Below are positions 27,944-50,656 of a stretch of 64,000 nucleotides of DNA, piece by piece (the first letter of the stretch is position 1; every line of letters begins with the position of its first letter). This DNA is from Promethearchaeota archaeon (GTDB lineage: Archaea; Asgardarchaeota; Lokiarchaeia; Sigyniarchaeales; SOKP01). Location of the stretch: the NCBI GenBank assembly GCA_008080735.1, contig SHMW01000014.1, positions 1 through 64,000 of the forward strand, written 5' to 3'. Under the pieces are notes generated by a model, which was given only the letters and a program-made list of their open reading frames with translations, was not told where the DNA came from and ran no database searches. The translations under genes and the position numbers were made by a program.

Positions 27944-28136
27944 AGTGTTAACTCATTTTATTATGATTTTCCTCTACTCGTTTTTTAATAGGATGCAATA
28001 TCAGTTTCTTTTATCTCGATGAATTCTGGGTTTAATAATTTTAGATAAGAAAAAGGCTTTTTCAAGCTAATTTATTCAATCGTTAAAAATAAGTAAAAGT
28101 ATATCATTAACTACTTAGCATTAAAAATTATTCGAA

Positions 28137-29225
28137 GTGATTAAGATCAGTCAAGCTACTTCTGATAAAGAATCTCCAGAAGAGGAAGAGGAGATTAAAA
28201 AACAACTTGGGATGGAACCCAACAAGCTTATTTTATCATGGAAATATAAAGATGTCGATAAAAAATTAACATATGACATAGAAAAATGCATTGGATGCAG
28301 TTTATGCAAGGAAGTGTGTCCCGTTGATGCGATTGAACTCGGGCCAGTTCCCGAAATCGCTCAAGGGCTTTTAGATGAGTCTAATCCAAAAATTATGATT
28401 GACCACGAGAAATGCTGTTATTGCATGCTTTGTGCGATCGTATGCCCAAACGATGCGTTCCACGAGCATTTCCAACCAGAAGGTAGGATCGACATGAATC
28501 AGTTCCCGCGTCTCGGGAAATTCTATAAAATCGATGAAGATAAATGTATTGAAGACGAGTCCAATGAAATATGTCAACTCTGTATCAATTCGCGTGAGAG
28601 AAATAATGTTAAGGCGTATCACAAGATTCAGCAAGAATGCCCCACCCAATGTTTTCAAATAGAATCCCCCATTTCCGGAGAAGTTGTCCTAAAGGAGCAT
28701 ATGCTATATAAATGCGACCCTTCCGGATGTAAAGCTTGTGTAAATATTTGCCCCGTAGAATCGTTCTTTATCCCTCAAAGTGCGGAGGATGTGAAAAAAT
28801 ATGGAAAAATTGCGTGCAACGAGGATGAATGTTTTTATTGTGGTGCCTGTGTAAATTCCTGTCCCGATGATTTAATTATTGTTGACCGCAAGAGCGTCGA
28901 AATTTTAGATCCAAAAACACCGGGTAATTATCCCTGGGTTGAAGCATGGATTAAACATATAAAAGAGATAATCAGAGAGCGGATTACGAAAGGAAAACCT
29001 CCAATTCACATTCCCTTAATAGAGGAAAAGATCGAAAAAGAAGCAAAAAAAGTCGAAGAAACGATTCCGCAAATCTCAGAAGAAGAAAAACAACAACTCA
29101 GAGAAATTAATGACAAAATACAAGAGCTCTTAAAAAATAAAAAGGTACGATATTGGATTAAAGACGGAAAAGCTGACAAAGTTGCCGCCGAATTAGATAA
29201 GCTTCTTAATAAAATGACTACCTAA
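28137..29225 (+). CDS. fwdF: Polyferredoxin, FwdF-like (true start may be ATC 28146)
   Basis: Several CxxCxxCxxxCP motifs; CPVDAIELGPVPEIAQG segment typical of FwdF. Confidence 0.75.
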   Translation: MIKISQATSDKESPEEEEEIKKQLGMEPNKLILSWKYKDVDKKLTYDIEKCIGCSLCKEVCPVDAIELGPVPEIAQGLLDESNPKIMIDHEKCCYCMLCAIVCPNDAFHEHFQPEGRIDMNQFPRLGKFYKIDEDKCIEDESNEICQLCINSRERNNVKAYHKIQQECPTQCFQIESPISGEVVLKEHMLYKCDPSGCKACVNICPVESFFIPQSAEDVKKYGKIACNEDECFYCGACVNSCPDDLIIVDRKSVEILDPKTPGNYPWVEAWIKHIKEIIRERITKGKPPIHIPLIEEKIEKEAKKVEETIPQISEEEKQQLREINDKIQELLKNKKVRYWIKDGKADKVAAELDKLLNKMTT

Positions 29226-29303
29226 ATAATATCAGTTCAATTTTTTAACAAATAATCGTTTTCATAAGATTTAAAACAAAAAAATAAAAAAATACCTATA
29301 AAA

Positions 29304-30056
29304 TTAGGTTTTGCCATATTTTTTAAAGATTAGAATTCCAGCAATCACTATTATGATGCTGAAAATTGAGACTATGGCAAGATTTGACCATATCGAGATG
29401 TCAGTTAGTACTGTTCCGCTCAGTATCTTAGTAATAGATTCGGTAACATAATAACTTGGCAATACCATTGCTATTATCTGGGTGGTGCTAGTTATTGGAA
29501 TAAAGGTTCCAAAAAACATCTGAGGTAAGATAAAAATGAACGCCAGTCCTGTTGCGGTTCCAGAATTTTTTGAAATGGTGGCGGTTATGAGTCCTAAACC
29601 TACTGAACAGATCGAAAGAATAGCAATAAACACAAAAGATAAGCTTATTCCAATAAGATGTGCTTCTGAACGGTATCCTATTAAGAAAGATGTGAGTGCC
29701 ACTATCGCTACTTGAAGCATCGAAAGAATTGTATTAGAGACAAGATGACTTCCCATGAATTCTGAAGAAGTGGTAGGCGTAAGATTAATTCTCTTCAAAA
29801 GTCCCGTTTCTCTATCGTCAGTAAAAGTCTGAGCAACCGTCATTATTATAAATATACACGCATATGCGTATAATCCTGGAACCATAAGCTCGAATTGATT
29901 TTTACCTGGTATTGCGGATTCTATCTCTGAAAAACCTAATCCAAATGTCAAAGTTAATGCCGCAGGGAATAATAGCATCAAAAAAAGATAGGCAGGTTCT
30001 CTAATCATCTTTTTTAATTCCATTAATGTGAGGGCAAATAGTTTTCGCATTTTCAT
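29304..30056 (-). CDS. ABC-2 type transporter permease
   Basis: Six TMs; DRETGLLKRINLTP; adjacent ATPase. Confidence 0.9.
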   Translation of the reverse strand: MKMRKLFALTLMELKKMIREPAYLFLMLLFPAALTLTFGLGFSEIESAIPGKNQFELMVPGLYAYACIFIIMTVAQTFTDDRETGLLKRINLTPTTSSEFMGSHLVSNTILSMLQVAIVALTSFLIGYRSEAHLIGISLSFVFIAILSICSVGLGLITATISKNSGTATGLAFIFILPQMFFGTFIPITSTTQIIAMVLPSYYVTESITKILSGTVLTDISIWSNLAIVSIFSIIIVIAGILIFKKYGKT

Positions 30057-30057
30057 T

Positions 30058-30837
30058 TTAGATCCCCTCCAATATTCTTCTACCAGTTATCTCTAAAAAG
30101 ACCTCCTCAAGATTTTTCGCATTATATCTTTCTAACAAAATTTGGGGTGGTCCTAAAGCTATTAATTCGCCATAATCGATAATTGCGATGGTATCACTCA
30201 AAGCTTCCGCCTCCTCAATATAATGGGTCGTTAAAATAACCGTCTTATTGCGTTCTTTAAGAGAGGATATAAACTTCCACACATTTCTGCGCGCTCGAGG
30301 ATCCATTCCAACAGTGGGCTCATCAAGGAAAACTATCTCTGGATTCCCGATCAAAGCCATGAGCATATTTAATATTCTTAACATTCCTCCACTGTATGTT
30401 TTTGCCTTTCTTTTGCTTTCTTCAACGAAATTAATTGATTTTAGAAGGAAATCGGTTCTTTCTCTTATCTCTTGTTTCTTTAAATCATATAGAACTCCAA
30501 ATAACTCGATATTTTCTCTACCTGTAAGGAATTTATAAACGGCTTCATGTTGGGGACATACTCCAATTAGATTTTTAATTCTTCTCAGATCTTTTTTTAT
30601 ATTGTAGCCATTTACAAAAATTTCACCTTCAGTTGGTTTTAGTAAACCATTTAGCATATTGATAGTAGTCGTCTTGCCAGCACCATTTGGACCTAATAGA
30701 CCGAATACCTCCCCCCTTCTAATTTTTAAAGAAAGGTTATTCACAGCTTCCAAATCTCCATATTTTTTGGTCAAATTACTAATCTCAATTGCCATTTCTG
30801 GCATAGATTTTTCTTGTTTACTTTTCGTTTGAGACAT
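30058..30837 (-). CDS. ABC transporter ATP-binding protein (DrrA-like)
   Basis: GPNGAGKTT; YSGGM; LDEPT; TTHY. Confidence 0.95.
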   Translation of the reverse strand: MSQTKSKQEKSMPEMAIEISNLTKKYGDLEAVNNLSLKIRRGEVFGLLGPNGAGKTTTINMLNGLLKPTEGEIFVNGYNIKKDLRRIKNLIGVCPQHEAVYKFLTGRENIELFGVLYDLKKQEIRERTDFLLKSINFVEESKRKAKTYSGGMLRILNMLMALIGNPEIVFLDEPTVGMDPRARRNVWKFISSLKERNKTVILTTHYIEEAEALSDTIAIIDYGELIALGPPQILLERYNAKNLEEVFLEITGRRILEGI

Positions 30838-31016
30838 TTCTAATTATTATTAAGTTTTTTATACTATTGATAAAATAGTATTGAATATACTTAAGAGATT
30901 TTGAGTCCAATTTTTATTCATTGGCATTTAAGATTATAAAATTCAAAAATAAAATTTGTACTTAATTCCCTATGAAAATATAAATATTTAATTAGTTGTT
31001 GAAATAAAAGTTTACT

Positions 31017-31550
31017 ATGTACTTTCCTAAATTATCGGAATGGCCATCGGCTAAGATTTTAAAGCGAATTATTATCGGTGCGGTAATTCTTCTCATCATT
31101 GTATATCCTTTTATGAGCTGGTATTTTATGGTATCTGCATTTCCAGTTGGGTTCTTTGAAAGTCAATTGTCGTTTAATGGAGAGATTCTGAAGATATATT
31201 ATAGTACAACTAATATAGACCTATATAGAATTGGACAACTACTAGATTATGGATTTATGGTAAGTTATGGACTACTATTTTTTTCTGTTTCACTAATTAT
31301 CGCACGGAAATTTGAAAATGAATCGAAAGGAAGACAAGTGGGATCTATCATTGCATTGATCGGTGTATTCGCCGCAATATGTGACGGAATTGAGAATTTA
31401 TTTATTCTTATTATGCTCGTTGACCCTCTCGGATTTCCGAATATTATCGCAATTATCCACTCGGTATTCGCCCTCATTAAATATGTCTGTTTTATTCCTG
31501 CCTTGGGATATATAATAATTGCTGGTCTGGTGCAATTGATTAAAAAATAA
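31017..31550 (+). CDS. Hypothetical four-TM membrane protein
   Basis: Hydrophobic helices; LDYGFM and CDGIEN motifs. Confidence 0.7.
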   Translation: MYFPKLSEWPSAKILKRIIIGAVILLIIVYPFMSWYFMVSAFPVGFFESQLSFNGEILKIYYSTTNIDLYRIGQLLDYGFMVSYGLLFFSVSLIIARKFENESKGRQVGSIIALIGVFAAICDGIENLFILIMLVDPLGFPNIIAIIHSVFALIKYVCFIPALGYIIIAGLVQLIKK

Positions 31551-31615
31551 TTTTCACTACTTTTTTCTTTTTTTGAAAGGTCTAATAGAGTGAGGAGAAC
31601 TAAGAAAAGCCTTAT

Positions 31616-32184
31616 TTATTTAAATGATTCAATGGCAATCTGACCATGATATTCATCAGCATGGACTATAGTATATGCCCATCCCGCCGCGCAATGTTCC
31701 GCCGGCATTAATCCGTCATATCCAGGATTGCCTCCTTGAGTCTGAAATTCCTCTGCCGTCATTCCGAATTTAGGGGCTAATGACATAGTTGCCTCTTGGA
31801 GACCTGGAGTATCCACCATTCAAGGCCCAAACGTAAGCAAAAATCCTTTGTTTCGTCTAATACCCCGGCTAATGATTCGCCAATCGAAGTTAAGACCGCT
31901 CTACTAGCAAAATAGGGTGTCATAAAGGGAGTACCCCCGCCAGAAGTTGTATTCACAATAACTCCTTGATTTTGTTGCAGTATATAGGGTAGGAATGTTT
32001 TAATCGCAAAAATGGCGCCTCTGATATTTACGCTATAGGTTTTGTCCCAGATATCCATCGGTAATACTCTGATTTCCCCTGCTGTATAAATAATGGCGTT
32101 GCTTCTGCTGGAATTTCAACGAGATTTTTCTCTTAGTATTGACCAACCAAATACATACTTCTCGCCTTTTACTAATTGTTGCAT
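31616..32184 (-). pseudogene. Fragmented short-chain dehydrogenase/reductase
   Basis: NAIIYTAG..., WDKTYSVNIRGA, degenerate YFASR, then a frameshift to ..VDTPG..; Rossmann N-terminus missing and an in-frame stop present. Confidence 0.75.
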
Positions 32185-32358
32185 ACGATCCTCTTCTATT
32201 TTATATTAATCTTAATGAGAAAATTTTTTCCTTAATAAAATTGAACTCAAGTTGTCATAATTCTTTGACATGATAAAGAAAGGAAAAAATCTTTGAGTTT
32301 AAGAATGTAGATCAATATAAATACTTAAAACATCTTATTTTCAAGAATGTGAATTATT

Positions 32359-32631
32359 GTGATTCTAAAATTAAAATGTGGATTCGCTCAAGGTATTAAA
32401 GAGAGTTCAAATCATCATATCTTGTTGATCGAACGAGATTCTACGATTGAGGATGATTTGAAGGCTCTTTTTAAATTTTTTAAAGACAGCATTGAGATCT
32501 CCAAAATTAGGCGTTTGCATAAATATTACAAGATAAAATCATCTAATCTAGCCATAATTATCTCCCTTCTCTCAACCATCTTGGAACTTATCCCAGAAGC
32601 AGTTGTTGTCAATGAACCTAGTATAGTGTAA
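32359..32631 (+). CDS. Small hypothetical protein
   Basis: 90-aa ORF with GTGAA SD 5 nt upstream and T-tract downstream. Confidence 0.6.
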   Translation: MILKLKCGFAQGIKESSNHHILLIERDSTIEDDLKALFKFFKDSIEISKIRRLHKYYKIKSSNLAIIISLLSTILELIPEAVVVNEPSIV

Positions 32632-32720
32632 TTAATTTTTTTCCTTACGTATACAAAACTCTTTCAAAATTTTTAATTATTAACGAAATTTACTAAGTTT
32701 AAAACTTTAGAAGAGTAATT

Positions 32721-33602
32721 ATGAAATTCGCAACAGTTAAACAGAAAAATCAAGAAATTGCCGCTCTAGTGGTGGGAGATCATTTCTTTCCAATCCCACA
32801 AATAAATACAACCTTATCTACAGATTGGTATAATACATTAGGAGAGATTTTGGAGCACAATCAACTTGATAAATTGATTTCTTGGTTTAATAGGACTGGA
32901 AGAGAATATTTAGAAAATACCAATGATTTAGGACAGCCGTTATCAGATATTAACTTTTCTCCGCTATATCGACACCCACATAAGATATGGGGTATTGGAC
33001 TCAATTATCGAGACCATGCTGAAGATTTATTGGAAAAAACTCCTTCCTTGATTCCCGCAAGTTTTATGAAATCTGATACCACCATCATCGGCCCAAATGA
33101 TACTATATTCATCCCAACACAATCCAGTAAAACTACGGGTGAGGCTGAGTTGGGCGTAATTATTAAAAAAAAATGTAAAAATATTCCGCGTGAAGATTGG
33201 TTGGAGGTAGTAGCAGGCTTTACCACGATTATCGATATGACCGCCGAGGATATACTCAGAAAAAATCCAAGATACCTCACGTTATCCAAAAATTTTGATA
33301 CCTTCTTTAGTTTTGGACCACTTTTAATAACGCCAGACGAGTTTGCAGATATTATGGATTTATCGATAGCGACAGTTATTAATGGGGAGGTTCACGCGAA
33401 AAATACGCTTTCAAATATGACCTTTCCCCCCGATTTTTTAGTGTCATTTCATTCCGAGATTATGACATTATTACCAGGAGACATTATTTCTACTGGCACT
33501 CCGAGAGCGGTTCAATTGCGTGATGGGGATATCATTGAATGCCAGATTGACGGATTTATGTCTCTGAAAAATCCTGTAAAAGATTTAAAAAATTTCCAAT
33601 GA
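32721..33602 (+). CDS. Fumarylacetoacetate hydrolase family protein
   Basis: GIGLNYRDHA; EAELGVII; DMTAED; PGDIISTGTP. Confidence 0.92.
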   Translation: MKFATVKQKNQEIAALVVGDHFFPIPQINTTLSTDWYNTLGEILEHNQLDKLISWFNRTGREYLENTNDLGQPLSDINFSPLYRHPHKIWGIGLNYRDHAEDLLEKTPSLIPASFMKSDTTIIGPNDTIFIPTQSSKTTGEAELGVIIKKKCKNIPREDWLEVVAGFTTIIDMTAEDILRKNPRYLTLSKNFDTFFSFGPLLITPDEFADIMDLSIATVINGEVHAKNTLSNMTFPPDFLVSFHSEIMTLLPGDIISTGTPRAVQLRDGDIIECQIDGFMSLKNPVKDLKNFQ

Positions 33603-33652
33603 TTCTCATTAATGGTCATTCTTTAAATTGACCAAACTCGATAACACAAGAA

Positions 33653-33726
33653 TGGGAGGGACGGGATTCGAACCCGCGGCCTCCTGGTCCCAAACCAGGA
33701 ATCATACCAAGCTAGACTACCCTCCC
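33653..33726 (-). tRNA. tRNA-Pro(TGG), intronless, CCA not encoded
   Basis: Minus strand GGGAGGG...CCTGG TT TGG GA CCAGG...GCGGGTTCGAATCCCGT CCCTCCC A forms a full cloverleaf. Confidence 0.96.
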
Positions 33727-33925
33727 ATTTAATAGAAAGAGTATAAATAGAACCATTCTTAAATTTGTATAGAATATTTAATATTTTGTAGGTTTTTAAT
33801 TTTGTTATTCATATTCCTTAACAAGCAGAATCTTGAAAAAGAGAATAGATAATTTGAAAATTCGAAGAAAAAATCATACTAAAAATTTTTTTATTATCAA
33901 TTATTTATAATAAAGCCGAGTAGAT

Positions 33926-34573
33926 ATGAGAAAACGAAATAAGGAAAATAGAGATTATATTATCCCCACATTTGATATAAACTCAGAAGGCTTTATACTC
34001 TGCAAAGATCATTCACAATATGAAAATCTTAAAACTTCTGCTTATGATTTTTTTCTGAATTTTTTAACTTTCAAACATCTAACTTGTAAATCATGTCAAA
34101 ACTTTAAAAATGACAAGTGTTATTTTCCGCAATCTGACCTCATTAAAATATCGGATGATTTAACCGTTTTTCAAAATCCCTTTATTTGTCAATTCTGTGG
34201 GCGAAAAGTTAGAAATCTATTCACTATTCTTAATAAGTTTAAAAAGGAGCGAGTTTCGAATCAAGTTTCGTCATTAATTTGTTATCGATGCCAAAAGATA
34301 CTTTTGATGGATAATCCTAAAAAAGGATTTATAGATTCTGCGAAACTTACTGCTATGTATTCAATAATAAATTTTTTTGGTATTTTAGGTGTTTTTTTCT
34401 TTTTTCCCCTTTTCCTACGTCTTCCTATGCTGATAGATTCATTTCTTATAAGTCTCATCATCGTGTCTATTATGTTCTACTTTTTTATTCATTATGGAAG
34501 CTTATCATTGAAATACTTAAAAATTGTAAACAATTATGAGATTAATTTCTCAGAATTCAAATCTTTAAAATAA
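33926..34573 (+). CDS. Zinc-finger membrane protein
   Basis: CKDH, CKSC-x6-C, CQFC, CYRC followed by two TM helices. Confidence 0.7.
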   Translation: MRKRNKENRDYIIPTFDINSEGFILCKDHSQYENLKTSAYDFFLNFLTFKHLTCKSCQNFKNDKCYFPQSDLIKISDDLTVFQNPFICQFCGRKVRNLFTILNKFKKERVSNQVSSLICYRCQKILLMDNPKKGFIDSAKLTAMYSIINFFGILGVFFFFPLFLRLPMLIDSFLISLIIVSIMFYFFIHYGSLSLKYLKIVNNYEINFSEFKSLK

Positions 34574-34642
34574 TTTTAGACTTGCACTTCTAGTCAGCTT
34601 TAATATAACAATCTAAAGGTTGAAAATATGTAGAATAAATTT

Positions 34643-35647
34643 TCAAAGATATCGTTTCTGGAATCCTTCGTAAAGTCTTTCTGCCACATCAATAATATAA
34701 TTCCTATTTTTAATAAAAGAAAGTAGCTCATCGGGAATATTACTATATCCATAATAAGTACCAAGAAGGGCTCCTCCAATGGCGCCCACCGTATCTGTAT
34801 CTCCTCCTGCAGTCACAAGTTCAAACACACACTCCTCCAGAGATGTATATTTTTTTAAAAACATAAAAAGAGAACAAATCATCGTGCTAAGGGCATATGG
34901 ATGCACAAATGCCTTACCCAAATATTGTTCAATAAAATAAGGAGATTTTACACCTAACTGAGAGAATTTTATAAGTCCAGACTCTATAGTGAGGTCCAGA
35001 TTATTTCTTAAAAGATCCACTCCTTCAGAAAATTCTCTCCACTCAGCCTTTTGAGAATTTAGGGTGGTCACGATTATACTGTCCAAAAAATCATCAACAT
35101 CTAAGCCACTTTCAATTGATTGATATGTTAAGTATGAGACTGCTTTTGCCATCATTCGTGCTCCTGCTGTCGCGGCGGGATGAGAATGTGTTAGTAAACT
35201 TTGTGCGTCAGCGGATTCCAAGAGTTTTTCTAAATCATTGCAATAGAACAAACCTATGGGAGAAACTCTCATTAAAGTCCCATTTCCTCCACTTTTTGAT
35301 GCCGCCTTTTGCCATGATATTCCATACTTCAATTTTTTAATCGATGTCAAACATCCGTATCCAGGACCTATCGGAGGATCTTCTAGCCATTTAACAAATT
35401 CTTTAATGAGATATTCCATATTAAACCCCCCTCCTTTTATTAACGCTTCGGCTAAATGAAGTGTTAACTGTGTATCGTCTGTATAGGATGAGAACTTCTT
35501 TTTATTTTTCCAGAGAAAATCTTCAAAAAATTCAAATTTTGAACGGATCTTTTCCCTCAACTTCCCCTCAAAAGGACGCCCCAACGTATCTCCTATCGCA
35601 ACTCCTATTAAACATCCTTTAAACTTATCTAAAAAATTTTTTTCCAT
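34643..35647 (-). CDS. ADP-ribosylglycohydrolase family protein
   Basis: GDTLG, YTDDTQ, GNGTLMR, THSHP, GGDTDT. Confidence 0.93.
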   Translation of the reverse strand: MEKNFLDKFKGCLIGVAIGDTLGRPFEGKLREKIRSKFEFFEDFLWKNKKKFSSYTDDTQLTLHLAEALIKGGGFNMEYLIKEFVKWLEDPPIGPGYGCLTSIKKLKYGISWQKAASKSGGNGTLMRVSPIGLFYCNDLEKLLESADAQSLLTHSHPAATAGARMMAKAVSYLTYQSIESGLDVDDFLDSIIVTTLNSQKAEWREFSEGVDLLRNNLDLTIESGLIKFSQLGVKSPYFIEQYLGKAFVHPYALSTMICSLFMFLKKYTSLEECVFELVTAGGDTDTVGAIGGALLGTYYGYSNIPDELLSFIKNRNYIIDVAERLYEGFQKRYL

Positions 35648-35684
35648 ATCGAAGAAGATTAGTGTTGACTATATTTCATAAGAA

Positions 35685-36062
35685 TTAAATGTGTTTGTGA
35701 GTTGCCATATTTTTAATATACTCAATAAGCACTTCTAAACTAAAAGGTTTCTCAAGAAATCCTAGAATGCCAAGCTTTAAGGCTTCTTGCTTTACGGTTT
35801 TATCTGCGCTAGCAAAAATAATATTTGCGTTTTGTTCTATTGACAAAATCTCTTTAGTGGCTTTCAATCCATCTTTCACGGGCATTCTATGATCCATTAA
35901 TATAATGTCTGGTTTTCGTTCGAACGCTTTAAATTTTTGAACTGCTTCTTCTCCATTACTTGCCGTACCTGCAACCTCGAATCCATATAAATCCAAAAAT
36001 TTCTTATAAAGGGTTTGAATGGATTTGTCGTCTTCGACGATAAATACGCTAACCAGAATCAC
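35685..36062 (-). CDS. Stand-alone response regulator receiver (CheY-like); start possibly CTG 36056
   Basis: VEDD; PDIILMDHRMPVKDG; FASA; KPF. Confidence 0.93.
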   Translation of the reverse strand: MILVSVFIVEDDKSIQTLYKKFLDLYGFEVAGTASNGEEAVQKFKAFERKPDIILMDHRMPVKDGLKATKEILSIEQNANIIFASADKTVKQEALKLGILGFLEKPFSLEVLIEYIKNMATHKHI

Positions 36063-36396
36063 ATCACCCGAGACATTTTTTAACGTGTTTGTTATATTCT
36101 TTAAGATGAATATTATGCTTGATATTTATTTTAGAACCCCCAACAAATACAAAGCCTTACCTCTTCTAAATATTCTATATTGGACCAAATGCTATTAAAC
36201 AATATAAAAGATATTCCTTTTAAATTTAGTTTAATTAAAAAATCACGCATTGAAATCATTCCCACCTCATAAACAAAAAATAAACACTTTCATCTCTAAT
36301 AATCATTAATCTTAGGTACTATAAAAATATAAAATAGGAGATATTTAATTTTAATCATATTGAAAAAATCAAAGAAAAAAAAGATTCGTTTCAAAA

Positions 36397-37950: not shown

Positions 37951-38100
37951 CCAAGAATCACTTTTTAGTCAAGCTTCACAGCCCAATATAAATAAATGTA
38001 CATACTAAATATTAAAAGTTAATTCTTACAAATTAATAATCGAAATCAAGAAAAATTATTTCCTACTATTAATTATAATATTAAAATTAAGTGAGAAACG

Positions 38101-39351: not shown

Positions 39352-39516
39352 CTCCATTTCTATTATTATTATTTTCTCTTTTTATCTTCGATCTATAGTT
39401 CCAACCGAATAATTTTGCTAATTTTTATTCAAAAAAATGAATAACAATTTAAATTATCTCAAATATTTATATAAGAACAAAGAAAAGGAAACTATAATAC
39501 GAGAGGAAATATAGTT

Positions 39517-40425: not shown

Positions 40426-40443
40426 ATTTCTATTTTTTTAGAG

Positions 40444-41277: not shown

Positions 41278-41429
41278 ATTTTTTTTTTAAAATCTTTTTT
41301 TCATTTATTCTAATGCTGATATCCACTATCTAATTTTAATTAGATAGTAATGAATCAAAGAATTTTTTTGGAAATGCTCATTACAATAATTATTGAATTT
41401 TTTGTCTTTTTATTGATGTGAATTTTTTC

Positions 41430-42926
41430 ATGGAAAATCATGGGATTAAAGATTTTATCGAGACTTATTATAGCCTTATTTTAATTATAGCTATTATAAT
41501 ATTGGTTTCACTAACAAATCTTGTTAATTTTTTGTTATTCCATACTATTACAGAGCTTTTTAGTATTGTTATTGCGATAAGTATTTTTATTCTTGGGTGG
41601 CATACTCAACAATATACAAACTCACAGTTCTTTATTCGGTTCGGAATCGGTGCGGTTTTTGTTGCGATAATAGATTTACTGCATACTCTTTCTTATGAAG
41701 GTTTGGGTATTTTTAGACAATATGATGCCAACCTTCCTACTCAATTATGGATCTTAGGGCGTTATATACAATCGAGTTCATTTATTATTGCTTTAATCCC
41801 TTTCTCCATTAAAAAAGATCATTATTACTTAATTCTTCTTTATGGTATTGCTAGCATAATGCTCATAACTAGCATTTTCACTGGAATTTTTCCCGACTGT
41901 TATATTTCGGGTATAGGGCTGACACCTTTCAAAATCATTAGTGAATATATAATAATTTTGCTTCTCGCGATTGCTATACTCATACTCTATTTGGAAAAGA
42001 GGAACTACTCAAAGGATCTCTCTATATTAATCAGTTTATCTCTCCTCTCAACTATTGTATCAGAATTCGCATTTACTTTATACATTAATGTCTATGGTTT
42101 TTCTAATTTCATTGGACATATTTTTAAGATTTTATCCTTCTTTTTTATCTATGTTGGGGTTATCCAGATAGGATTAAAAGATCCAATGCGAGTTTTATTT
42201 AGACAGCTAAAAGAGAGAGAAGAATCGCTAAATCAAGCCTATAATCGTACTAATTTTTATAAAAATTTATTTGCACACGATATAAATAATATTTTCCAAA
42301 ATATTCTCTCCTCCTTGGAACTTTACGATTTGGAGGGAAAAAATATTGAGAAATATCATGATAGTATAAAAAATCAATTAATTCGAGGAAATAAATTAGT
42401 TAAAAATGTGATAAAACTTACCGAGCTTGATGAATATAAAGAAGAATTAAAAAAGATGAGTCTTCACCAAGCACTCGAACATGCGATCTCATTTTTAAAG
42501 GAAAGCTATTCTAACAAAAGTATTAAAATAGATTTAAATCTTCCTGAAGAACCAATAAAGATACAAGCTAATGAACTCATAAACGATATTTTTGAGAACA
42601 TTTTAATCAATGCGGTCAAATATAATCAAAATAATCTTATAAAAATTAAGATAAAGACTTCGATAATAACTAAGAAAAACCAGCAGTATTCTAAAATACA
42701 GTTCATTGATAATGGAATTGGAATACATCCTTCAAGGAGAGAAGAAATTTTTAAAACGGACATCCAAAAGACTTCAAAAACAAAAGGATTGGGTTTGGGA
42801 CTTTCCCTCGTAAAGAAAGTAATCGAGCTCTATAATGGAGATCTTTGGGTAGAGTCTCGAGTGGAAGGTGAGTATGAAAAAGGAAGTAATTTTGTCCTTA
42901 TCATACCGCTAGCTGAAGAGAAATAA
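41430..42926 (+). CDS. MASE3-domain membrane sensor histidine kinase
   Basis: FLLFHTITELFSI, DLLHTLSYEG, GLTPFKIISEY, GHIFK (MASE3); HDINNIFQN; DNGIGI. Confidence 0.9.
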   Translation: MENHGIKDFIETYYSLILIIAIIILVSLTNLVNFLLFHTITELFSIVIAISIFILGWHTQQYTNSQFFIRFGIGAVFVAIIDLLHTLSYEGLGIFRQYDANLPTQLWILGRYIQSSSFIIALIPFSIKKDHYYLILLYGIASIMLITSIFTGIFPDCYISGIGLTPFKIISEYIIILLLAIAILILYLEKRNYSKDLSILISLSLLSTIVSEFAFTLYINVYGFSNFIGHIFKILSFFFIYVGVIQIGLKDPMRVLFRQLKEREESLNQAYNRTNFYKNLFAHDINNIFQNILSSLELYDLEGKNIEKYHDSIKNQLIRGNKLVKNVIKLTELDEYKEELKKMSLHQALEHAISFLKESYSNKSIKIDLNLPEEPIKIQANELINDIFENILINAVKYNQNNLIKIKIKTSIITKKNQQYSKIQFIDNGIGIHPSRREEIFKTDIQKTSKTKGLGLGLSLVKKVIELYNGDLWVESRVEGEYEKGSNFVLIIPLAEEK

Positions 42927-42947
42927 GAGCAAATTCTGTTAATATCT

Positions 42948-44261
42948 TTAATTAAGATGTTTTGGAACTTTTTGTTTCTTGATAAGATCCTTAAATTCCT
43001 CAGCTTCACGAATAATATAGGATTTTTTACCCTTTATCAATACTTCAGGTGCTCTTGGTCTGGAATTATATACACTTGACATAACAAAACCATAGGCTCC
43101 TGAATCAAGGATTGCCAAATAGTCTTCTTCAATCGGCTCTGGAAATTTTCTGTTCTTCCCCAATATATCTCCAGATTCACATATTGGTCCCGCAATGTCA
43201 TATTCTTTTACATCCGAATTTTCATGTATCTGACAAGGAATAATATGATGATAAGAACCATACATAGTTGGTCTGATTAAAGTATTAAAACCTGCATCTA
43301 CCCCGAGGAATTTTTTATACCCATTATCCTTTTTTGTATTGATTTGAGTGAGAATAATTCCAGCTTCAGCAACAATGAATCGACCAGGTTCAATTTTTAT
43401 TACAGGTTTGCCTATCTTATGCTGCTCAAGCAAATCTACCATTGGCTTAATAACGATTTCTTTATATTTATCTAAATCCAGTGGTTCTTGTTCGGGATTA
43501 TATGGAATTCCTAATCCCCCTCCAAAATCTATGAACTCGAACTTAATATCAAGTGTGTCTGCTAAATTCATTACAATATCAATATATTTCCCAATTGCTT
43601 TTTCATAATCGGTTGCATCAATAATCCCAGATCCTATATGAATATGTGTACCAAATCGAGTAAATCCATAATCTTTCGCTTTTTTATATGCTTCAATAAC
43701 TTGATTATTTAATATTCCGAACTTAATTTCTCTTCCCGCGGTAATTGTATGTGCGTGATGTCCCGCCCCAAATTCAGGATTGATCCTAAATGAAATCGCA
43801 CCTTTCTCTTTCCCCAAATCTTCATAAATTCTCGTCAATCTGTCTAACTGGCTAATGCTATCTAAGTTAATACCAACACCATTCTCAATAGCGTATCGAA
43901 AATCTTCATTAGTAAACATATTTCCAGTATATAATATCTTATCCGACGGAAATCCCGCTTTCAAAGAAAGAAAAACCTCCCCAGCAGAACTACAATCTAC
44001 ACTGGCACCTTCAGAATTAAGGATCTTAAGCACAGAGAGGTTTGAGTTTGCTTTAACTGCATAATGAATCTCATTATTCGTATATACGGAATCCAAGAGC
44101 TCTTTCAGAACGTTATATCTCTCTCTGATTATAATTTCATTTATAACATATACAGGAGTTCCATATTGCTCAGCTAAATCATTACATCGGATATTACCGT
44201 AAAAAAGCTCATTGTTTTTGTACTCAAGATCTTTTCTTTTTAACCAATCTTTTTTATTCAT
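42948..44261 (-). CDS. lysA: Diaminopimelate decarboxylase
   Basis: YAVKANSN; HIHIGS; EPGR; GPICESGD; YNSRPR. Confidence 0.96.
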   Translation of the reverse strand: MNKKDWLKRKDLEYKNNELFYGNIRCNDLAEQYGTPVYVINEIIIRERYNVLKELLDSVYTNNEIHYAVKANSNLSVLKILNSEGASVDCSSAGEVFLSLKAGFPSDKILYTGNMFTNEDFRYAIENGVGINLDSISQLDRLTRIYEDLGKEKGAISFRINPEFGAGHHAHTITAGREIKFGILNNQVIEAYKKAKDYGFTRFGTHIHIGSGIIDATDYEKAIGKYIDIVMNLADTLDIKFEFIDFGGGLGIPYNPEQEPLDLDKYKEIVIKPMVDLLEQHKIGKPVIKIEPGRFIVAEAGIILTQINTKKDNGYKKFLGVDAGFNTLIRPTMYGSYHHIIPCQIHENSDVKEYDIAGPICESGDILGKNRKFPEPIEEDYLAILDSGAYGFVMSSVYNSRPRAPEVLIKGKKSYIIREAEEFKDLIKKQKVPKHLN

Positions 44262-44319
44262 TTTAAAATTTTTTAATTATACTTATTTTTGATTAAACCA
44301 ATATAAGGTACAAAATATT

Positions 44320-45207
44320 CTAGAATTCAAGTTGTTTTATTTGGCCTATAAAAACCCTTTCTACGGGTCCTTCCATAAGAACATTTTCTCCATCGAAACT
44401 AATAATAAGATCCCCTCCATCATTATGGACAACCACTGATTCACCTCTTTTAAATTTCCCAAGGATCACTCCCGCCACAATGGAGGCACAACTACCCGTT
44501 CCGCAAGAATTGGTAATACCAACCCCTCGCTCAAAGACCCTTACTGTACATTCATGTGGTGAGATGACTTTCACAAATTCAACGTTAGTCTTATTTGGAA
44601 AGCGTTTATGAGTTTCTATCGCAGAACCATATTTATTCAAGTCATTATCATCTAATTGCTCGTCTACAAAAATCACCGCATGTGGATTTCCCATTGAAAC
44701 TGCTGAAATATTAAAAATCTTATCCAAGACGGGGAGAGCTTCGTTAATACATTCGAAGGAATCATTCTTATCAGGAATAATTGGAATTTCTTCACATTGT
44801 AATATAGGTTCTCCCATATTTATTTCCACGCTTGTCACCTCCTCAACTTCTGCTAGCTTTAATCTAGCATGGATAATACCCTTTAAAGTTTCAACATCAA
44901 ATTCTTGTGATTTTATGATATTATGTTCATAGATGTATTTAGAGAAACATCGAATCCCGTTACCGCACATCTCCGCCTCGGTTCCGTCATTATTAAAAAT
45001 TCTCATCTTAATTTCTGCTATTTGGGAATCACATACATATATTAGCCCGTCAGCACCGATAGAAAAATGCCATTCACAGAGTTTCTCCGCTAGTTTCGCC
45101 TTTTTATTTTCCGGAATTTGGAGTTCGAGATCATTCACAATAATATAATCATTCCCTAATCCGTGAAATTTTTCAAACTCAAAATTTTGTAGAATAAACC
45201 TTTCCAT
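44320..45207 (-). CDS. dapF: Diaminopimelate epimerase
   Basis: HGLGNDY; EMCGNGIRC; GNPH; ERGVG.TNSCGTG. Confidence 0.96.
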   Translation of the reverse strand: MERFILQNFEFEKFHGLGNDYIIVNDLELQIPENKKAKLAEKLCEWHFSIGADGLIYVCDSQIAEIKMRIFNNDGTEAEMCGNGIRCFSKYIYEHNIIKSQEFDVETLKGIIHARLKLAEVEEVTSVEINMGEPILQCEEIPIIPDKNDSFECINEALPVLDKIFNISAVSMGNPHAVIFVDEQLDDNDLNKYGSAIETHKRFPNKTNVEFVKVISPHECTVRVFERGVGITNSCGTGSCASIVAGVILGKFKRGESVVVHNDGGDLIISFDGENVLMEGPVERVFIGQIKQLEF

Positions 45208-45375
45208 ATTTTCAATTTTATAGTAGTAGTATAATTTATTAAAAATAGTTCCAAAAAAATTTCTATTATGGATTGAAACCTATTCTTGAATGTATGGTAA
45301 ATAAAAATTTAAGCAATTGATTATTTTCTAAATCAAAGATTTATCATTTAGAGACTTTCTTGTTGATTTAGAAAA

Positions 45376-46659
45376 ATGGGACTTACCATAACTGAAAAGA
45401 TATTACGAGATCACGCCCAAAATGACAAAGTGGTGGCTGGAGATTTCATCTTTGCCGATATTGACAAATGTTTGGCAAATGATATAACAGCACCTATTGC
45501 AATTGATGTATTCGAAGAAGTGGTAAAAGGAACTGATAAGACTGTTTTTGACAATGAAAAAATCATCCTCACGCCAGATCATTTTACTCCTAATAAAGAT
45601 GTTGAATCTGCTCAGCAATGTCAAATTATGAGGGATTTCGCTCATAAATACCATATCACAAATTATTTTGAGATGGGGAGAGTTGGTATTGAACATTGTC
45701 TTATCCCCGAACAAGGATTAGTCGTACCTGGTGATCTATTTATCGGAGCCGACTCACATACTTGCACATATGGTGCTTTAGGCGCTTTCTCCACAGGTGT
45801 GGGTTCCACAGACTTGGGAGTAGCTATGGCATTAGGGAAATGTTGGTTGAAAATACCCGAAACTATAAAATTCATCTATTCTGGGGATTTAAATAAATGG
45901 GTTTCAGGAAAAGATTTGATCTTGTATACAATTGGGCAAATCGGAGTCGATGGTGCGACATATAAGGCAATGGAATTTGCAGGAGAAGTTATAGAGAATC
46001 TTTCAATGGCAAATCGGTTTACTATATGCAATATGGCAATTGAGGCGGGAGGAAAAAATGGTATCATTGTCCCAGATAATATTACTAAAAAATATGTGGA
46101 CCAATTAGAATTAAATCAACTTAAATTTTATAAAAATGATAATGATGCGGAATATGAGGAAGTTTACGAATTTGATTGCGCTAAAATCGAACCGCAGGTG
46201 GCATATCCACACCTTCCGGAGAATACAAAACCCATATCTGAAGCCCATAATGATAGAATTAAACTCAATCAAGTGGTAATAGGATCATGCACTAATGGGA
46301 GATTGGAAGATTTAGAAATTGCCGCTTCTCTACTCAAGAATCGAAAAATTCATCCAGACATAAGATGTATTATAATCCCTGGGACGCAACAAATCTATTT
46401 GGAAGCAGTAAAACAAGGGTTGGTGGAGATTTTTCTTACGAGTGGAGCAATTGTTTCAACTCCTACTTGCGGACCTTGTCTTGGAGGACATATGGGTATT
46501 CTTGCTGCAGGAGAAAAAGCTCTATCCACCACAAACAGAAATTTTCTAGGACGTATGGGGCATATAGAAAGTGAAATTTATCTTTCCAGTCCAGCTATTG
46601 CCACTGCTTCTGCAATAACGGGATATATTACATCTCCCAAATATCTTGACAATCCTTAG
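45376..46659 (+). CDS. leuC: 3-isopropylmalate dehydratase large subunit
   Basis: DHF; GADSHTCT; GSCTNGR; CGPCLG; STTNRNF. Confidence 0.92.
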
Positions 46660-46695
46660 ACTATACAATCAAAAAACAAAACTATTGATAAAAAA

Positions 46696-47193
46696 ATGAA
46701 TGGAATTGTATTAAAATACGAAGAAAAGAATATTAATACAGATCTGATAATTCCAGCACGATTCCTAAACAAATCGGATTTTGATCATCTCGCAGAGCAT
46801 TGTATGGAAGATTTAGACCCCAATTTCCATAAAAGAAAACAAGACTTAAATGCATCTATATTAGTTGGGGGTGCTAACTTTGGAAGCGGTTCAAGTAGAG
46901 AACAAGCACCTATTTCTCTCAAAGCGGCGGGAATAAAATGCATAATAGCACCATATTTTGCAAGGATCTTTTTTCGCAATTCGATTAATATTGGATTACC
47001 TATAATTGAATTTGTGGATATCTCTCAATTCTCAACGGGAGATCAGATAGAAATCTCCCTAGTGAAAGGTTTCATTAGAAATATCACTACTGATAAGGAG
47101 TTTTCTATTAAAAAAATGCCGCCATTCCTCAGAGAGATCATTTCTGCGGATGGACTTATCAATTATGCTAGAAGTAAGATAATCGAAATATAA
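46696..47193 (+). CDS. leuD: 3-isopropylmalate dehydratase small subunit
   Basis: NINTDLIIP; NFGSGSSREQA; FARIFFRNSINIG. Confidence 0.92.
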   Translation: MNGIVLKYEEKNINTDLIIPARFLNKSDFDHLAEHCMEDLDPNFHKRKQDLNASILVGGANFGSGSSREQAPISLKAAGIKCIIAPYFARIFFRNSINIGLPIIEFVDISQFSTGDQIEISLVKGFIRNITTDKEFSIKKMPPFLREIISADGLINYARSKIIEI

Positions 47194-47247
47194 ATATATA
47201 TAAAGATTATTTACTATAAACAAAGCGGTTATTAATTTTTTGGAAAA

Positions 47248-47775
47248 ATGAAACAGCGAATATTGATATTTGTCCTATTTATCTTACTCTTATTTATTCC
47301 CTTTGGTCATGTGAAAGCTTTCGAAGATGCCGTAGAGATAGAAGAAAATACTCCCGTTTTTTATTTGTTTAGCTTAGAGAAAGATGCGCCTCTCAATAAT
47401 ATCAAAATAGATATTTCAAGGGAAAAAAAAGGGAATATCTCTGTTTTCCTTTTTGATAGGAGACCGATGACTAGCTATATCACTCCAAATCAAACCTTAG
47501 ATGATGCGATCTTTTCGGATTCAATCAATTTCACTGAATCGGAGACCCCATCGCTGAATGTAACCGCGTCTGAGGCAAAAATCTACTACCTCGAGATTCT
47601 TATTTTTGCAAACGGGTCCGATATTTTATATGTCCAATCGAATAGAGAATTATCTCGCTATTATCTTCCCAGTATTCCTGGATTTCCCCTCGCAATTATG
47701 TTAGGTACGATTATTATCTCAGTATCAGTTCTATTCATCACCCAAAAAAGAAAGCTTAAAACTTCCACGATCTAG
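47248..47775 (+). CDS. Secreted protein with Loki-CTERM/PGF-CTERM-like sorting tail
   Basis: N-terminal signal peptide; C-terminal SIPGFP + TM + KRKLK. Confidence 0.75.
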   Translation: MKQRILIFVLFILLLFIPFGHVKAFEDAVEIEENTPVFYLFSLEKDAPLNNIKIDISREKKGNISVFLFDRRPMTSYITPNQTLDDAIFSDSINFTESETPSLNVTASEAKIYYLEILIFANGSDILYVQSNRELSRYYLPSIPGFPLAIMLGTIIISVSVLFITQKRKLKTSTI

Positions 47776-47859
47776 ATTTTTTAAATATTATACTATACCT
47801 TTTAAACTATTTTTTATTACTTTTCCGTAGTTCAATTTTGTAAAAAAAGTGATCTTAAG

Positions 47860-48642
47860 ATGGCGAAATTAAGTAAAAAACAGTATCTTCAAATTGGTAA
47901 TATATTAGCGGTAATTGGAACTATCGTGGTTAATCTTTTGGCAAATGTGATTCCTATTGGTGGCAATACAACAGGGGATTTAGCTGAGGATTATCCGAAT
48001 TTATTCGTTCCTGCGGGATATGTCTTTTCCATATGGTTCATTATATACGTACTAATTGTGATTTTTGCTGTCTATCAAGCAAAAGACCTGTTTAAATCGG
48101 AAAAGGAAGATCTTCCTTTTATTGAAAAAATCAGTGTATTTTTCATTATCGGAAGTCTTGGAAACATTACATGGATCTTTTTCTGGCATTATAAAGTGTT
48201 AATTGGAGCCTTGATTGCGATATTAATTCTGTTCCTCTCGCTGCTTATTATATACTGGAATTTGGAGATTGGTATTTCAGATGCTCCGCGAAATGAGAAA
48301 TTATATGTTCATTTACCTATAAGTGTGTATTTTGGATGGCTCACTGTAGCGACAGTAGCCCAGATCGTCGCTCTTTTGGTTGATTTAGGTGTACCTAGCT
48401 TTGGTATTCTTGCGGATTTTTTAACAGTTGTAGTGATAATTGTTGTTCTACTGCTCGCTCTTATAAACCTTTATACTAGAGAGGATATAGCATATAATTT
48501 AGTCATTGTCTGGGCTTCTATTGGTATATTTGTAAAACAGTTGCCCTCAAATCTATTAATTTCTATTACTGCACTAATCGCAGCTCTCATTGTCGGTATT
48601 TTTATCATATATTTAGTCTACAAGAAGTATATTAAAAAATAG
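47860..48642 (+). CDS. Tryptophan-rich sensory (TspO/MBR-related) membrane protein
   Basis: YPNLFVPAGYVFSIW; PISVYFGWLTVA; about eight TMs. Confidence 0.75.
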   Translation: MAKLSKKQYLQIGNILAVIGTIVVNLLANVIPIGGNTTGDLAEDYPNLFVPAGYVFSIWFIIYVLIVIFAVYQAKDLFKSEKEDLPFIEKISVFFIIGSLGNITWIFFWHYKVLIGALIAILILFLSLLIIYWNLEIGISDAPRNEKLYVHLPISVYFGWLTVATVAQIVALLVDLGVPSFGILADFLTVVVIIVVLLLALINLYTREDIAYNLVIVWASIGIFVKQLPSNLLISITALIAALIVGIFIIYLVYKKYIKK

Positions 48643-48863
48643 ACACATGGCAAAATCAAAATTTACCCCAATTCTTTTTCTTTTTTTCCTTTTTAAGACT
48701 AATTGTCAATTTAATGTTTTTTTCCCAGATAATTGGAGTCAGAATTGATGAAACCTAAAAATCTAACACCTATCTCTATAGGAGAAATAGAATAACTCAA
48801 AAGCTCACTTTCTTTTTATTATTATCTTAACTACTTTCCTATTGGTTAAGTTTTGTTTTTTTA

Positions 48864-49028
48864 TCAATATTCAATCTCAGCAATAATTTCAGGGTCTCCA
48901 CTCTCGGGATCATCTTCTACAATAATATCGAGCTTATATCCCTGTTCATTGAATTCTCTCTTCACATTGCTTAGATTGATATAAGTACAGTTCCCCTTAT
49001 TAAACACTATTTTATCTTTTATACTAAT
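48864..49028 (-). CDS. Unannotated 54-aa acidic protein, predicted ATT start
   Basis: GGTGAT (49039-49034), 5 nt, ATT AGT ATA AAA...; MSIKDKIVFNKGNCTYINLSNVKREFNEQGYKLDIIVEDDPESGDPEIIAEIEY, ending TGA TAA. Confidence 0.55.
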   Translation of the reverse strand: MSIKDKIVFNKGNCTYINLSNVKREFNEQGYKLDIIVEDDPESGDPEIIAEIEY

Positions 49029-49450
49029 ATCATATCACCATTTATTTTCATAATGACCTACTCTTATGAAATGATGTCCTGCAAATCATCAACTCATTTC
49101 TTAAGCTTAGGTGAGTCCTAATTTCCTTAATTCCTAAAAAAAAGGGTAACCTTTTAAACATTTCAAAATCCTACAAAGATCTCTACCTTATAGGGGACAG
49201 TGTAAAATATGCAAAATTTTATAAAGGAAGGTTTAGTCATTCAAAAGACTTCATAATATTCTGATCATGTGGATTTATAAGGAAATTAATGAATTTCGTA
49301 AATTTTAAAAACTTCAATTTTCCAAAAGCACTAAAAATTCCCAATTCCTTAAAGTCGTGATCTTACTACAACGATCAATTTTATATTTCATTCTTCAATT
49401 TCTTAACTATACCTATTACTATAACAAATAACAATAAAAAGTGATGAGAA

Positions 49451-50656
49451 ATTTCTTTCGAAGAGTTATCTAAAGAATTAGCAAAGCTCATGGAAGATAC
49501 GAAAGAGCTCGAACTTAAGGATGTAGATTTGTTCGCTGAATATTTAGAGTTTCAGATGCTTCCTACTATCGTCGCATCGGCAGCGCAAGCCGCAGGCTTA
49601 CCCGCACCTGGTAAACTTGGAAAAGCAGAGTGGACATCAAAACAGTTTAAATTAGAGGTGCAATATCCTGGAGAAATCGAGACAATTCAATTCATCCGAT
49701 CGAATGGGAAAACGTGTACTATCGGTGGAGAAAAAGTCCCTCCATTTTATAGCTTTTTGGGAGTGGGTAAACAGAATCCTCATCCTCCCTTGATTACTTA
49801 CGATGTATTTGATATGGGGGATAAGATGATGCTTCCAAAACCCATCAAGAACGAGTATAAAGATGTATTGGGTAATCCCGCAGAATGGGCTAAGTTTGCA
49901 GTTGATAAGTTTGGTGCGGAATGTATCACTTTTCACTCATTAGGAATTGACCCGGGAACACTTGATTGGCCAGTCTCAAAATCTAAAGAATTATTTGAGG
50001 ACGTGCTTCAAGCAGTCGACGTACCTGTTATTATTGGTTGTTCTGGAAACAAGGAAAAGGATGTAGAGATGTTTAAAGAGCTCGCAGCTATGTCTGAAGA
50101 TGATGTTTTAATGCTTTCGGCAGCTGATAAGGCTACCTGGGAGGAAGTTATCCCACTCGCAGTGAAATACGATCATAACTGCCTATTATGGACATCCCTC
50201 GACTTAAACAATCAGATTAAAATGAATAAAGATGCAATCGAATTAGGTCTTCCGCGCAATCGCATCGTTATGGATCCCACCTGTGCTACTTTGGGGTATG
50301 GTATGGAATATAGTTTCAGCATCTATCAGAGAATGAGGATGGCTGGACTCTTGGGTGAAGAAGATTTAGCCTATCCGATTAGTGGTGGTACTACTAACGC
50401 ATGGGGTGCTCGTGAAGCATGGATGAGTGAGAAAAAGACTCCAAGCGATTGGGGAGCGAGAGAATACCGAGGACCAATTTGGGAAATCTTGAATGCGTTG
50501 AGCTTATCGCTTGTTGGGCTTGATCTCGCAATGATGTTCCATCCAATATCAGCGAAGCATATGAAGGATATCACTACACAGTTCTTCGCAGAGATGCCAG
50601 AGACATTAGAAGATATGGGCTACTATAACTGGGTATCCGGTCAGATGAAGCGTTAA
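49451..50656 (+). CDS. cdhD: CO dehydrogenase/acetyl-CoA synthase delta subunit (corrinoid Fe-S protein small subunit); track ATG at 49490, predicted ATT start at 49451
   Basis: YPGEIETI...IGGEKVPPFYSF; PAEWAK; VMDPTCATLGYG.EYS; NAWGAREAW; RGPIWE; MFHP. Confidence 0.93.
   Translation: MSFEELSKELAKLMEDTKELELKDVDLFAEYLEFQMLPTIVASAAQAAGLPAPGKLGKAEWTSKQFKLEVQYPGEIETIQFIRSNGKTCTIGGEKVPPFYSFLGVGKQNPHPPLITYDVFDMGDKMMLPKPIKNEYKDVLGNPAEWAKFAVDKFGAECITFHSLGIDPGTLDWPVSKSKELFEDVLQAVDVPVIIGCSGNKEKDVEMFKELAAMSEDDVLMLSAADKATWEEVIPLAVKYDHNCLLWTSLDLNNQIKMNKDAIELGLPRNRIVMDPTCATLGYGMEYSFSIYQRMRMAGLLGEEDLAYPISGGTTNAWGAREAWMSEKKTPSDWGAREYRGPIWEILNALSLSLVGLDLAMMFHPISAKHMKDITTQFFAEMPETLEDMGYYNWVSGQMKR

Follow-up and report, generated by a model that had tools for sequence, protein, structure and literature searches.

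Evidence for Shine-Dalgarno-guided initiation at ATT and other near-cognate codons in a family of Lokiarchaeia

Introduction

With which codon does a gene begin when a Shine-Dalgarno (SD) sequence is followed, at the customary distance, by an in-frame ATT, ATC, or CTG rather than by ATG, GTG, or TTG? This question is raised by a stretch of 64,000 nucleotides (the window) from the genome of a Promethearchaeota archaeon within the Lokiarchaeia, namely positions 1 to 64,000 of contig SHMW01000014.1 (assembly GCA_008080735.1). In the initial annotation of the window, four genes or candidate genes were proposed to start at such near-cognate codons: a polyferredoxin gene, a response-regulator receiver gene, an open reading frame (ORF) of 54 codons, and cdhD, encoding the delta subunit of acetyl-CoA decarbonylase/synthase. 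The interval followed up here consists of these four separate loci of the 64-kb window, the two genes that had been given names, fwdF and cdhD, lying at its opposite ends. It had also been proposed that near-cognate initiation is used systematically in this lineage, possibly as a layer of translational control. In a review of archaeal translation, only AUG, GUG, and UUG are given as start codons, and aIF1 of Sulfolobus is described as rejecting AUU (PMC4705826).

On the basis of sequence comparisons, the family to which the source genome belongs very likely accepts AUU, and less often AUA, AUC, and CUG, as start codons about 4–9 nt past an SD that pairs with the 3′ end of 16S rRNA (AUCACCUCC). 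The comparisons record directly that SD and near-cognate codon occur in this configuration, that the configuration is in excess specifically in the reading frame, that it is conserved, and that some orthologs have ATG in place of its near-cognate codon. Because three independent lines—the frame-specific enrichment, which was replicated in a second genus, the alignment of orthologs, and the boundaries of Pfam domains—point the same way, the proposal that SD-guided near-cognate initiation is systematic in the lineage is upheld. Among the four loci of the window, it holds for cdhD, the polyferredoxin gene, and the receiver gene, and not for the 54-codon ORF.

Near-cognate codons behind SD sequences, within the window and genome-wide

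All four near-cognate motifs were found at their positions as originally described, and the seven canonical starts cited with them as examples of SD spacing were likewise verified, at 3554 (7 nt), 47860 (6 nt), 37950 (6 nt, GTG), 53808 (6 nt), 51648 (5 nt, GTG), 38101 (5 nt), and 62252 (4 nt, GTG). The motif RGTGAD is not enriched in the window, where 155 occurrences compare with 142 expected, and GGTGAT-N5-ATT occurs once against an expectation of 0.94. Since these counts match expectation, no single locus is significant when taken by itself.

The source genome comprises 4.15 Mb in 140 contigs, with 33.6% GC and an estimated contamination of 7%. The ORFs taken from it, 3,483 in all, do not overlap, span 100 codons or more, and are closed at their 5′ ends. 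Pieces of the SD consensus GGAGGTGAT are enriched 5- to 14-fold upstream of first ATGs, and the distance from GTGAT to the ATG is most often about 5 nt. As initially stated, this SD is complementary to the 3′ end of 16S rRNA, the consensus pairing with GGAUCACCUCCU as read in two relatives; a 16S rRNA gene was searched for in the source metagenome-assembled genome (MAG) and was not found. An SD was termed "orphan" when located upstream of the first ATG, GTG, or TTG of an ORF without a canonical in-frame codon within reach, and the triplets found at start distance from orphan SDs were tallied separately for the reading frame and out of frame.

With the motif of the initial annotation, 29 of the 71 in-frame triplets 4–7 nt after an orphan SD were near-cognate (ATT 14, ATA 10, CTG 4, and ATC 1), compared with 10 among the 169 triplets in the other frames (p = 2e-10). 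When all 5-mers of GGAGGTGAT were used, ATT was found in 43 of 276 cases in frame and in 13 of 456 out of frame (odds ratio 6.3, p = 7e-10), with corresponding counts of 20 and 15 for ATA and 6 and 2 for CTG. The spacing of ATT peaks at 5–6 nt, the same as that of ATG. The net excess in frame thus amounts to about 35 ATT, 11 ATA, and 5 CTG, and ATT greatly outnumbers the equally AT-rich ATA. The first canonical starts preceded by an SD comprise 303 ATG, 57 TTG, and 19 GTG; with about 35 in excess, ATT therefore comes close to GTG or TTG in frequency as an SD-led start. In total, near-cognate codons make up roughly 12% of SD-led starts, in about 50 genes or more. The genome-wide scan suggested in the initial annotation therefore revealed SD-linked near-cognate codons in numbers exceeding chance, and in the reading frame only.

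The prominence originally given to Met-Ser N-termini was not borne out: after ATG, too, Ser is the residue most often found in second place (17% vs 28%, p = 0.14).

Start codons of cdhD and the polyferredoxin gene

The cdhD frame is open from 49448 to 50656 on the plus strand. An SD, AGTGAT (49440–49445), precedes by 5 nt an in-frame ATT (49451–49453), which stands one codon past the upstream stop and from which the coding sequence (49451–50656) specifies 401 residues; the first ATG, at 49490, follows 13 codons after the ATT. The encoded protein passes the threshold of TIGR00381 (350.1 bits vs a cut-off of 252.9), with residues 9–381 of the ATT-started protein corresponding to profile positions 3–376, and also matches PF03599 (180.7 bits). 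The alignment to TIGR00381 accordingly begins at residue 9. In the NCBI nr database, the protein is given as 388 residues starting from ATG 49490, and is hence 13 residues short.

The N-terminal peptide SFEELSKKLAKLM of CdhD is conserved in orthologs. In loci from 30 relatives, the codon aligned to ATT 49451 is ATT in 13, ATA in 2, ATG in 8, and TTG in one, with RGTGAT located 5 nt upstream; in a set of 77 species-level genomes, it is ATT in 61, ATA in 5, and ATG in 9, and RGTGAT or CGTGAT lies 5 nt before the aligned start in nearly all orthologs. Alignment of orthologs, the second check that had been suggested, thus places ATG or TTG at exactly the aligned codon and shows a conserved N-terminal peptide. 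Furthermore, the SD core is kept in 59 of the 61 ATT-type genes, compared with 4 of the 9 ATG-type genes, in which the SD has often decayed, for example to GTAA or GTGT in place of GTGA. The loss of the SD alongside ATG is a hint that the two changes may compensate for each other, keeping the rate of initiation constant. From these alignments, the true start of cdhD in the window is very probably ATT 49451.

An out-of-frame ATG in or abutting the SD, which the initial annotation had pointed out at three loci, is indeed present there, but it is not conserved among cdhD orthologs. As a functional element it was rejected, with only about one-third of the cdhD orthologs carrying GTGATG.

At the other end of the interval, the gene labelled fwdF is a polyferredoxin gene, several Fer4 domains being the only domains matched. 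The name did not stand: the best NCBIfam match, FwdF (NF042909), scores 133.9 bits against a cut-off of 375. The frame is open from 28125 to 29225 on the plus strand, with the SD AGTGAT (28136–28141) located 4 nt before an in-frame ATC (28146–28148), from which the coding sequence (28146–29225) specifies 359 residues. The SD itself contains an in-frame GTG (28137), which had been passed over in the initial annotation and is the start given in NCBI nr. This GTG is not conserved, several orthologs having a stop or non-start codon at its position. Among the 24 orthologs of the family whose sequence includes the N-terminus, the aligned start codon is ATT in about 17, ATC in 3, ATA in 3, and ATG in one, and the near-cognate codons (about 23 of the 24) are followed by Ser or Thr. 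GGTGA, GTGAT, GGTTGA, or GGTCGA lies 4–9 nt ahead of the aligned ATH codon, and orthologs from sister families begin at ATG. The alignment of orthologs indicates that the true start in the window is very probably ATC 28146.

Might these codons have arisen from ATG through errors of assembly or polishing, or in decaying pseudogenes? The state of the source genome, a MAG of 140 contigs with 7% estimated contamination and no 16S rRNA gene, could be taken to favor such an artefact. Against this, the same ATT is found in dozens of independently assembled MAGs as well as in closed chromosomes, and independent MAGs from many studies agree on the near-cognate starts. The ORFs are intact and conserved at the protein level, and random errors would neither favor ATT over ATC and ACG nor keep to one frame. 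An artefact has, accordingly, next to no probability.

The receiver gene and the 54-codon ORF

The receiver frame is open from 36125 down to 35685 on the minus strand. The SD GGTGAT (36063–36068) stands 6 nt before a CTG (36054–36056), the likeliest start, from which the coding sequence (35685–36056) specifies 123 residues; between SD and CTG lie an in-frame GTG at 36062, at a spacing of 0, and an in-frame ATT at 36059, at a spacing of 3. PF00072 matches residues 4–114 of the CTG-started protein (E = 1e-24; 87.3 bits vs a gathering score of 30.2). Orthologs begin with ATG or TTG three codons ahead of [VI]FIVEDD, and the CTG in the window occupies that very position. The nearest ortholog has ATT at the aligned start with GGAGGG upstream, a paralogue in a genus-mate has GGTGA followed after 6 nt by CTG, and further paralogues start with ATA, ATT, or CTG. 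NCBI nr has the protein begin at GTG 36062, which would require a spacing of 0, a rare arrangement (7 of about 390). Judged by the alignment, the start is probably CTG 36056, with GTG 36062 or ATT 36059 as alternatives.

The remaining locus (48864–49039, minus strand) consists of GGTGAT (49039–49034), 5 nt, and ATT at 49028, opening a frame of 54 codons. A comparison of this ORF with Pfam yielded no match, and a search of 40 relatives yielded essentially no homolog, with one marginal match. The single database homolog, of 33 residues and 85% identity, is called from an internal GTG. The ORF is therefore unsupported as a gene, and was rejected as an example of a near-cognate start.

Domain boundaries upstream of the first canonical codon

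Twenty candidates with long "extensions" ahead of the first canonical codon were scanned against Pfam. Nine of them have a Pfam domain whose beginning precedes that codon and lies no more than a few residues from the near-cognate one. In FdhD, residues 25–267 are matched and the first canonical codon is codon 104. For the others, the match begins at residue 15 in SCP2 (first canonical codon 49), at residue 10 in a winged-helix (wHTH) protein (codon 47), at residue 13 in ThiD (codon 35), at residue 19 in DegT (codon 30), and at residue 5 in PGM_PMM_I (codon 24); a TetR_N protein with an ATA start is matched from residue 18 (codon 36), and a HAD phosphatase with a CTG start from residue 13 (codon 53). 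In a Ras-family small GTPase (contig C9:39338-39898, minus strand), the match begins at residue 8 and the first canonical codon is codon 23, past the P-loop. Since this P-loop, GDGGVGKT, precedes the first ATG, GTG, or TTG, it is intact only when translation starts from the ATT behind GGAGG.

These boundaries bear directly on whether the annotated canonical starts could be right after all, namely the downstream ATG in cdhD and the GTG in or adjoining the SD in the other two genes, with SD plus ATT, ATC, or CTG being a coincidence in 5′ leaders. Every affected ORF does hold some ATG, GTG, or TTG that is used by public gene calls, and RGTGAD is common and not enriched, with its 155 occurrences in 64 kb. 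A coincidence would not, however, be expected to give a frame-specific excess of near-cognate codons, to leave conserved peptides and Pfam domains ahead of the canonical starts (as with the P-loop of Ras and the N-termini of ThiD and FdhD), or to place an ATG in orthologs exactly at the near-cognate position; GTG 28137 is moreover not conserved, and an SD spacing of 0 is rare. We consider it very improbable that the annotated starts are correct. Other starts are indeed chosen by gene callers, the NCBI nr entries for cdhD, the polyferredoxin gene, and the receiver gene following canonical-start models.

Taxonomic range

Close relatives of the source genome have been deposited as MAGs of Promethearchaeota or "Candidatus Lokiarchaeota", and the genomes tested have 29–34% GC. 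The genomes compared are related and thus not statistically independent. In a second genus of the family (genome G013, 0.79 Mb), near-cognate codons were found in 23 of 62 cases in frame and 4 of 99 out of frame (p = 7e-8), with 12 and 0 ATT, respectively. A 1.2-Mb sample of the closed genome G032, which belongs to a sister family, gave 18 of 102 in frame and 22 of 168 out of frame (p = 0.38), with 6 and 9 ATT, and hence no excess. SD usage in G032 is similar to that in the source genome, and the anti-SD does not differ between the family and genomes outside it; the share of ATT differs between the family and G032 (p = 0.01). The trait is thus concentrated in the family of the source genome, and single genes of G032 may use near-cognate starts too. 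An FtsX-like permease gene of G032, with GAGGTGAT followed after 5 nt by ATA, looks like a genuine near-cognate start.

A test independent of the SD, in which the length of open frame before the first canonical start was compared between the source genome and G032, was uninformative, the heavier tail being found in G032. ORFs with at least 25 codons before the first canonical start make up 8.0% in G032 and 5.7% in the source genome, a difference that comes without an SD-linked near-cognate signal in G032.

Decoding of near-cognate codons

The SD:anti-SD duplex would set the near-cognate codon in the P site, where the ordinary initiator Met-tRNA (anticodon CAU) would pair with one mismatch and escape rejection, the codon being read as Met. 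ARAGORN detected 26 tRNAs in the source MAG and no tRNA-Met; the initiator tRNA gene was found by a pattern search on contig C35, on the minus strand near plus-strand 10.7 kb. It has a CAU anticodon, A1:U72, a GGG/CCC anticodon stem, and the acceptor stem AGCGGGG...CCCCGCT, together with an unusual insertion or intron in the region of the D-arm. The idea of an unusual initiator tRNA was rejected, this tRNA being standard apart from the odd intron.

Alternatively, decoding might be dedicated, AUU and AUA being read directly, possibly with insertion of Ile, by another initiator-like tRNA or by an initiator tRNA that is modified at C34. The preference for AUH codons would agree with this, as would an intron-containing tRNA-Ile with anticodon UAU predicted on contig C1, and the tRNA set of the MAG, with 26 found, is incomplete. 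On the other hand, the one initiator tRNA found is of the standard type (CAU, A1:U72, and three G:C pairs), the use of CTG does not fit an AUH-specific tRNA, and no second initiator-like tRNA was seen in the incomplete tRNA set of the MAG. Decoding of this kind is very improbable. The tRNA-Ile(UAU) prediction by ARAGORN lies at C1:105532-105638.

Possible control of initiation through aIF1

The gene for aIF1, the factor that polices start-codon fidelity, belongs to the affected genes. On contig C103 (approximately 1879–2199, plus strand), an aIF1/SUI1 (PF01253) frame begins with ATT AGC GAA... behind GTTGTGA. Its first canonical in-frame codon is a TTG at codon 13, a start that would cut into the CxxC zinc knuckle. 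Of 22 genomes of the family, 21 carry ATT, ATC, or ATA at the aligned start and the remaining one carries GTG; genomes of sister families have GTG, TTG, ATA, or ATG there. As in infC, then, the fidelity factor's own gene begins at a codon discriminated against, and does so conservedly. Sulfolobus aIF1 has been observed to reject AUU-programmed complexes in vitro, and in bacteria IF3 owes its autocontrol to the AUU with which infC begins (PMC4705826). A role of eIF1 in start-codon selection has also been stated (PMC6237735).

By analogy, aIF1 made from an AUU start could exert negative feedback on initiation at AUU, as infC does, in a loop that would set the permissiveness of initiation. A weak start codon combined with a strong SD would, in addition, tune expression. 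That the weak starts amount to a layer of translational control, as was proposed initially, is something we infer, and the conserved ATT start of aIF1 strengthens it. The fullest version of this idea is a family of Lokiarchaeia with lowered, self-adjusting stringency, in which AUU-made aIF1 feeds back on AUU recognition and a regulon of AUU, AUA, and CUG genes moves with aIF1 activity. It is put forward tentatively, as a rather doubtful extension. If true, such a regulon would comprise components of the Wood-Ljungdahl pathway (CdhD and the associated polyferredoxin), small GTPases, and enzymes of cofactor and sugar metabolism. The observations that count for selection are the long retention of weak codons in aIF1, cdhD, and the polyferredoxin gene, the preference for ATT over ATA, and the tendency of SD loss to go with ATG.

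Near-cognate starts might equally be used without regulatory meaning, through AT-rich drift that is tolerated where a strong SD compensates, with no control layer and no aIF1 feedback. The gene for ThiD provides an example: at one aligned codon, four genomes have ATT, six have ATG, and one has GTG, and such free switching among close relatives is what near-neutral drift under AT mutation pressure would produce. Furthermore, cdhD has returned to ATG several times, the genomes have 29–34% GC, and the affected genes are of unrelated functions. What drift does not readily account for is that near-cognates are kept in cdhD (ATT in 61 of 77), aIF1 (21 of 22), and the polyferredoxin gene (about 23 of 24) though ATG is one mutation away, that ATT is far commoner than the equally AT-rich ATA, that ATG-type cdhD tends to lose its SD, and that an equally AT-rich genome of a sister family lacks the excess. 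Use without regulation is a real possibility, if somewhat short of an even chance.

Several points weigh against SD-guided near-cognate initiation as a regulated system, or limit what can be built on it. The switching of ThiD starts speaks against a regulatory layer, and the ATG-type cdhD genes, the basis for linking SD loss to ATG, are confined to two or three clades. A lineage-specific change of the aIF1 protein as the cause of relaxed stringency was rejected, with a single fixed difference, A25 vs Q. The receiver gene has three candidate start codons within 9 nt, and the 54-codon ORF failed in the Pfam and homolog searches. The gene set was derived by the author's own ORF filter rather than by a trained gene finder, and the detection of near-cognates requires an exact 5-mer SD, so that the counts are lower bounds and both the number of genes and the dependence on the SD are only bounded. 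Throughout, the evidence is comparative and statistical.

Other features of the window

On the minus strand, a 615-aa ORF has an ATG at an SD spacing of 3, directly followed by an ATT at a spacing of 6 (25951–25956, with AGTGAT upstream), and the codon served by this SD is ambiguous. A tRNA gene (33653–33726, minus strand; 64 bits) is the sole Rfam match in the window.

Consequences for annotation and experiment

Standard gene finders allow only ATG, GTG, and TTG, and at least about 1% of the proteins in widely used Asgard MAGs would as a result have truncated, extended, or missing N-termini. Such errors carry over into predicted structures, into constructs made for expression, and into phylogenies of eukaryotic signature proteins; the canonical model would, for instance, strip the P-loop from the Ras-like GTPase. 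A lineage in which AUU rivals GUG and UUG and in which aIF1 itself is made from AUU would amount to a natural experiment in which the setting of eIF1-type proofreading can be studied. Because G032 gave no signal, experimental work should target the family of the source genome rather than any cultured Loki strain.

Comparison with known systems

With canonical archaeal initiation, the starts described here share the same SD (GGAGGUGAU) and spacing as well as a standard initiator tRNA. In the cultured Loki genome, SDs have been described as not prevalent (PMC7531240). A literature search for archaeal ATT starts yielded only one, anecdotal case, the Asgard tubulin AtubA, with a "rare ATT start codon" (Sci Adv 2026, PMC13394414). 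There too, an ATT behind a plausible ribosome-binding site restores a conserved N-terminus that is absent from the database entry; unlike here, the case concerns one gene of another Asgard family, called rare, and came without genome-wide or comparative analysis (PMC13394414). New here are the finding that the starts of cdhD and of the polyferredoxin gene are deeply conserved, the replication in a second genus, the negative control in a sister family, and the link between SD loss and ATG.

In bacteria, near-cognate AUU starts behind an SD are found in E. coli infC, encoding IF3, and in pcnB, and the likeness extends to a fidelity factor whose own gene carries the weak codon, infC there and aIF1 here. 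The factor here is aIF1/SUI1, a homolog of eIF1, and not IF3, and autocontrol, established for infC, is for aIF1 a proposal by analogy. Only a handful of genes in E. coli are known to have SD-led AUU starts, whereas about 50 or more are affected here, with ATT rivalling GTG and TTG. Eukaryotic eIF1 regulates its own expression by way of a poor initiation site. The stringency set by eIF1 and eIF5 resembles the situation proposed here in that a homologous factor, eIF1 or aIF1, polices codon–anticodon pairing (PMC6237735). The near-cognate starts of the two systems differ in being positioned by the SD in this family, instead of by scanning and Kozak context, and in the preference here for AUU over CUG.

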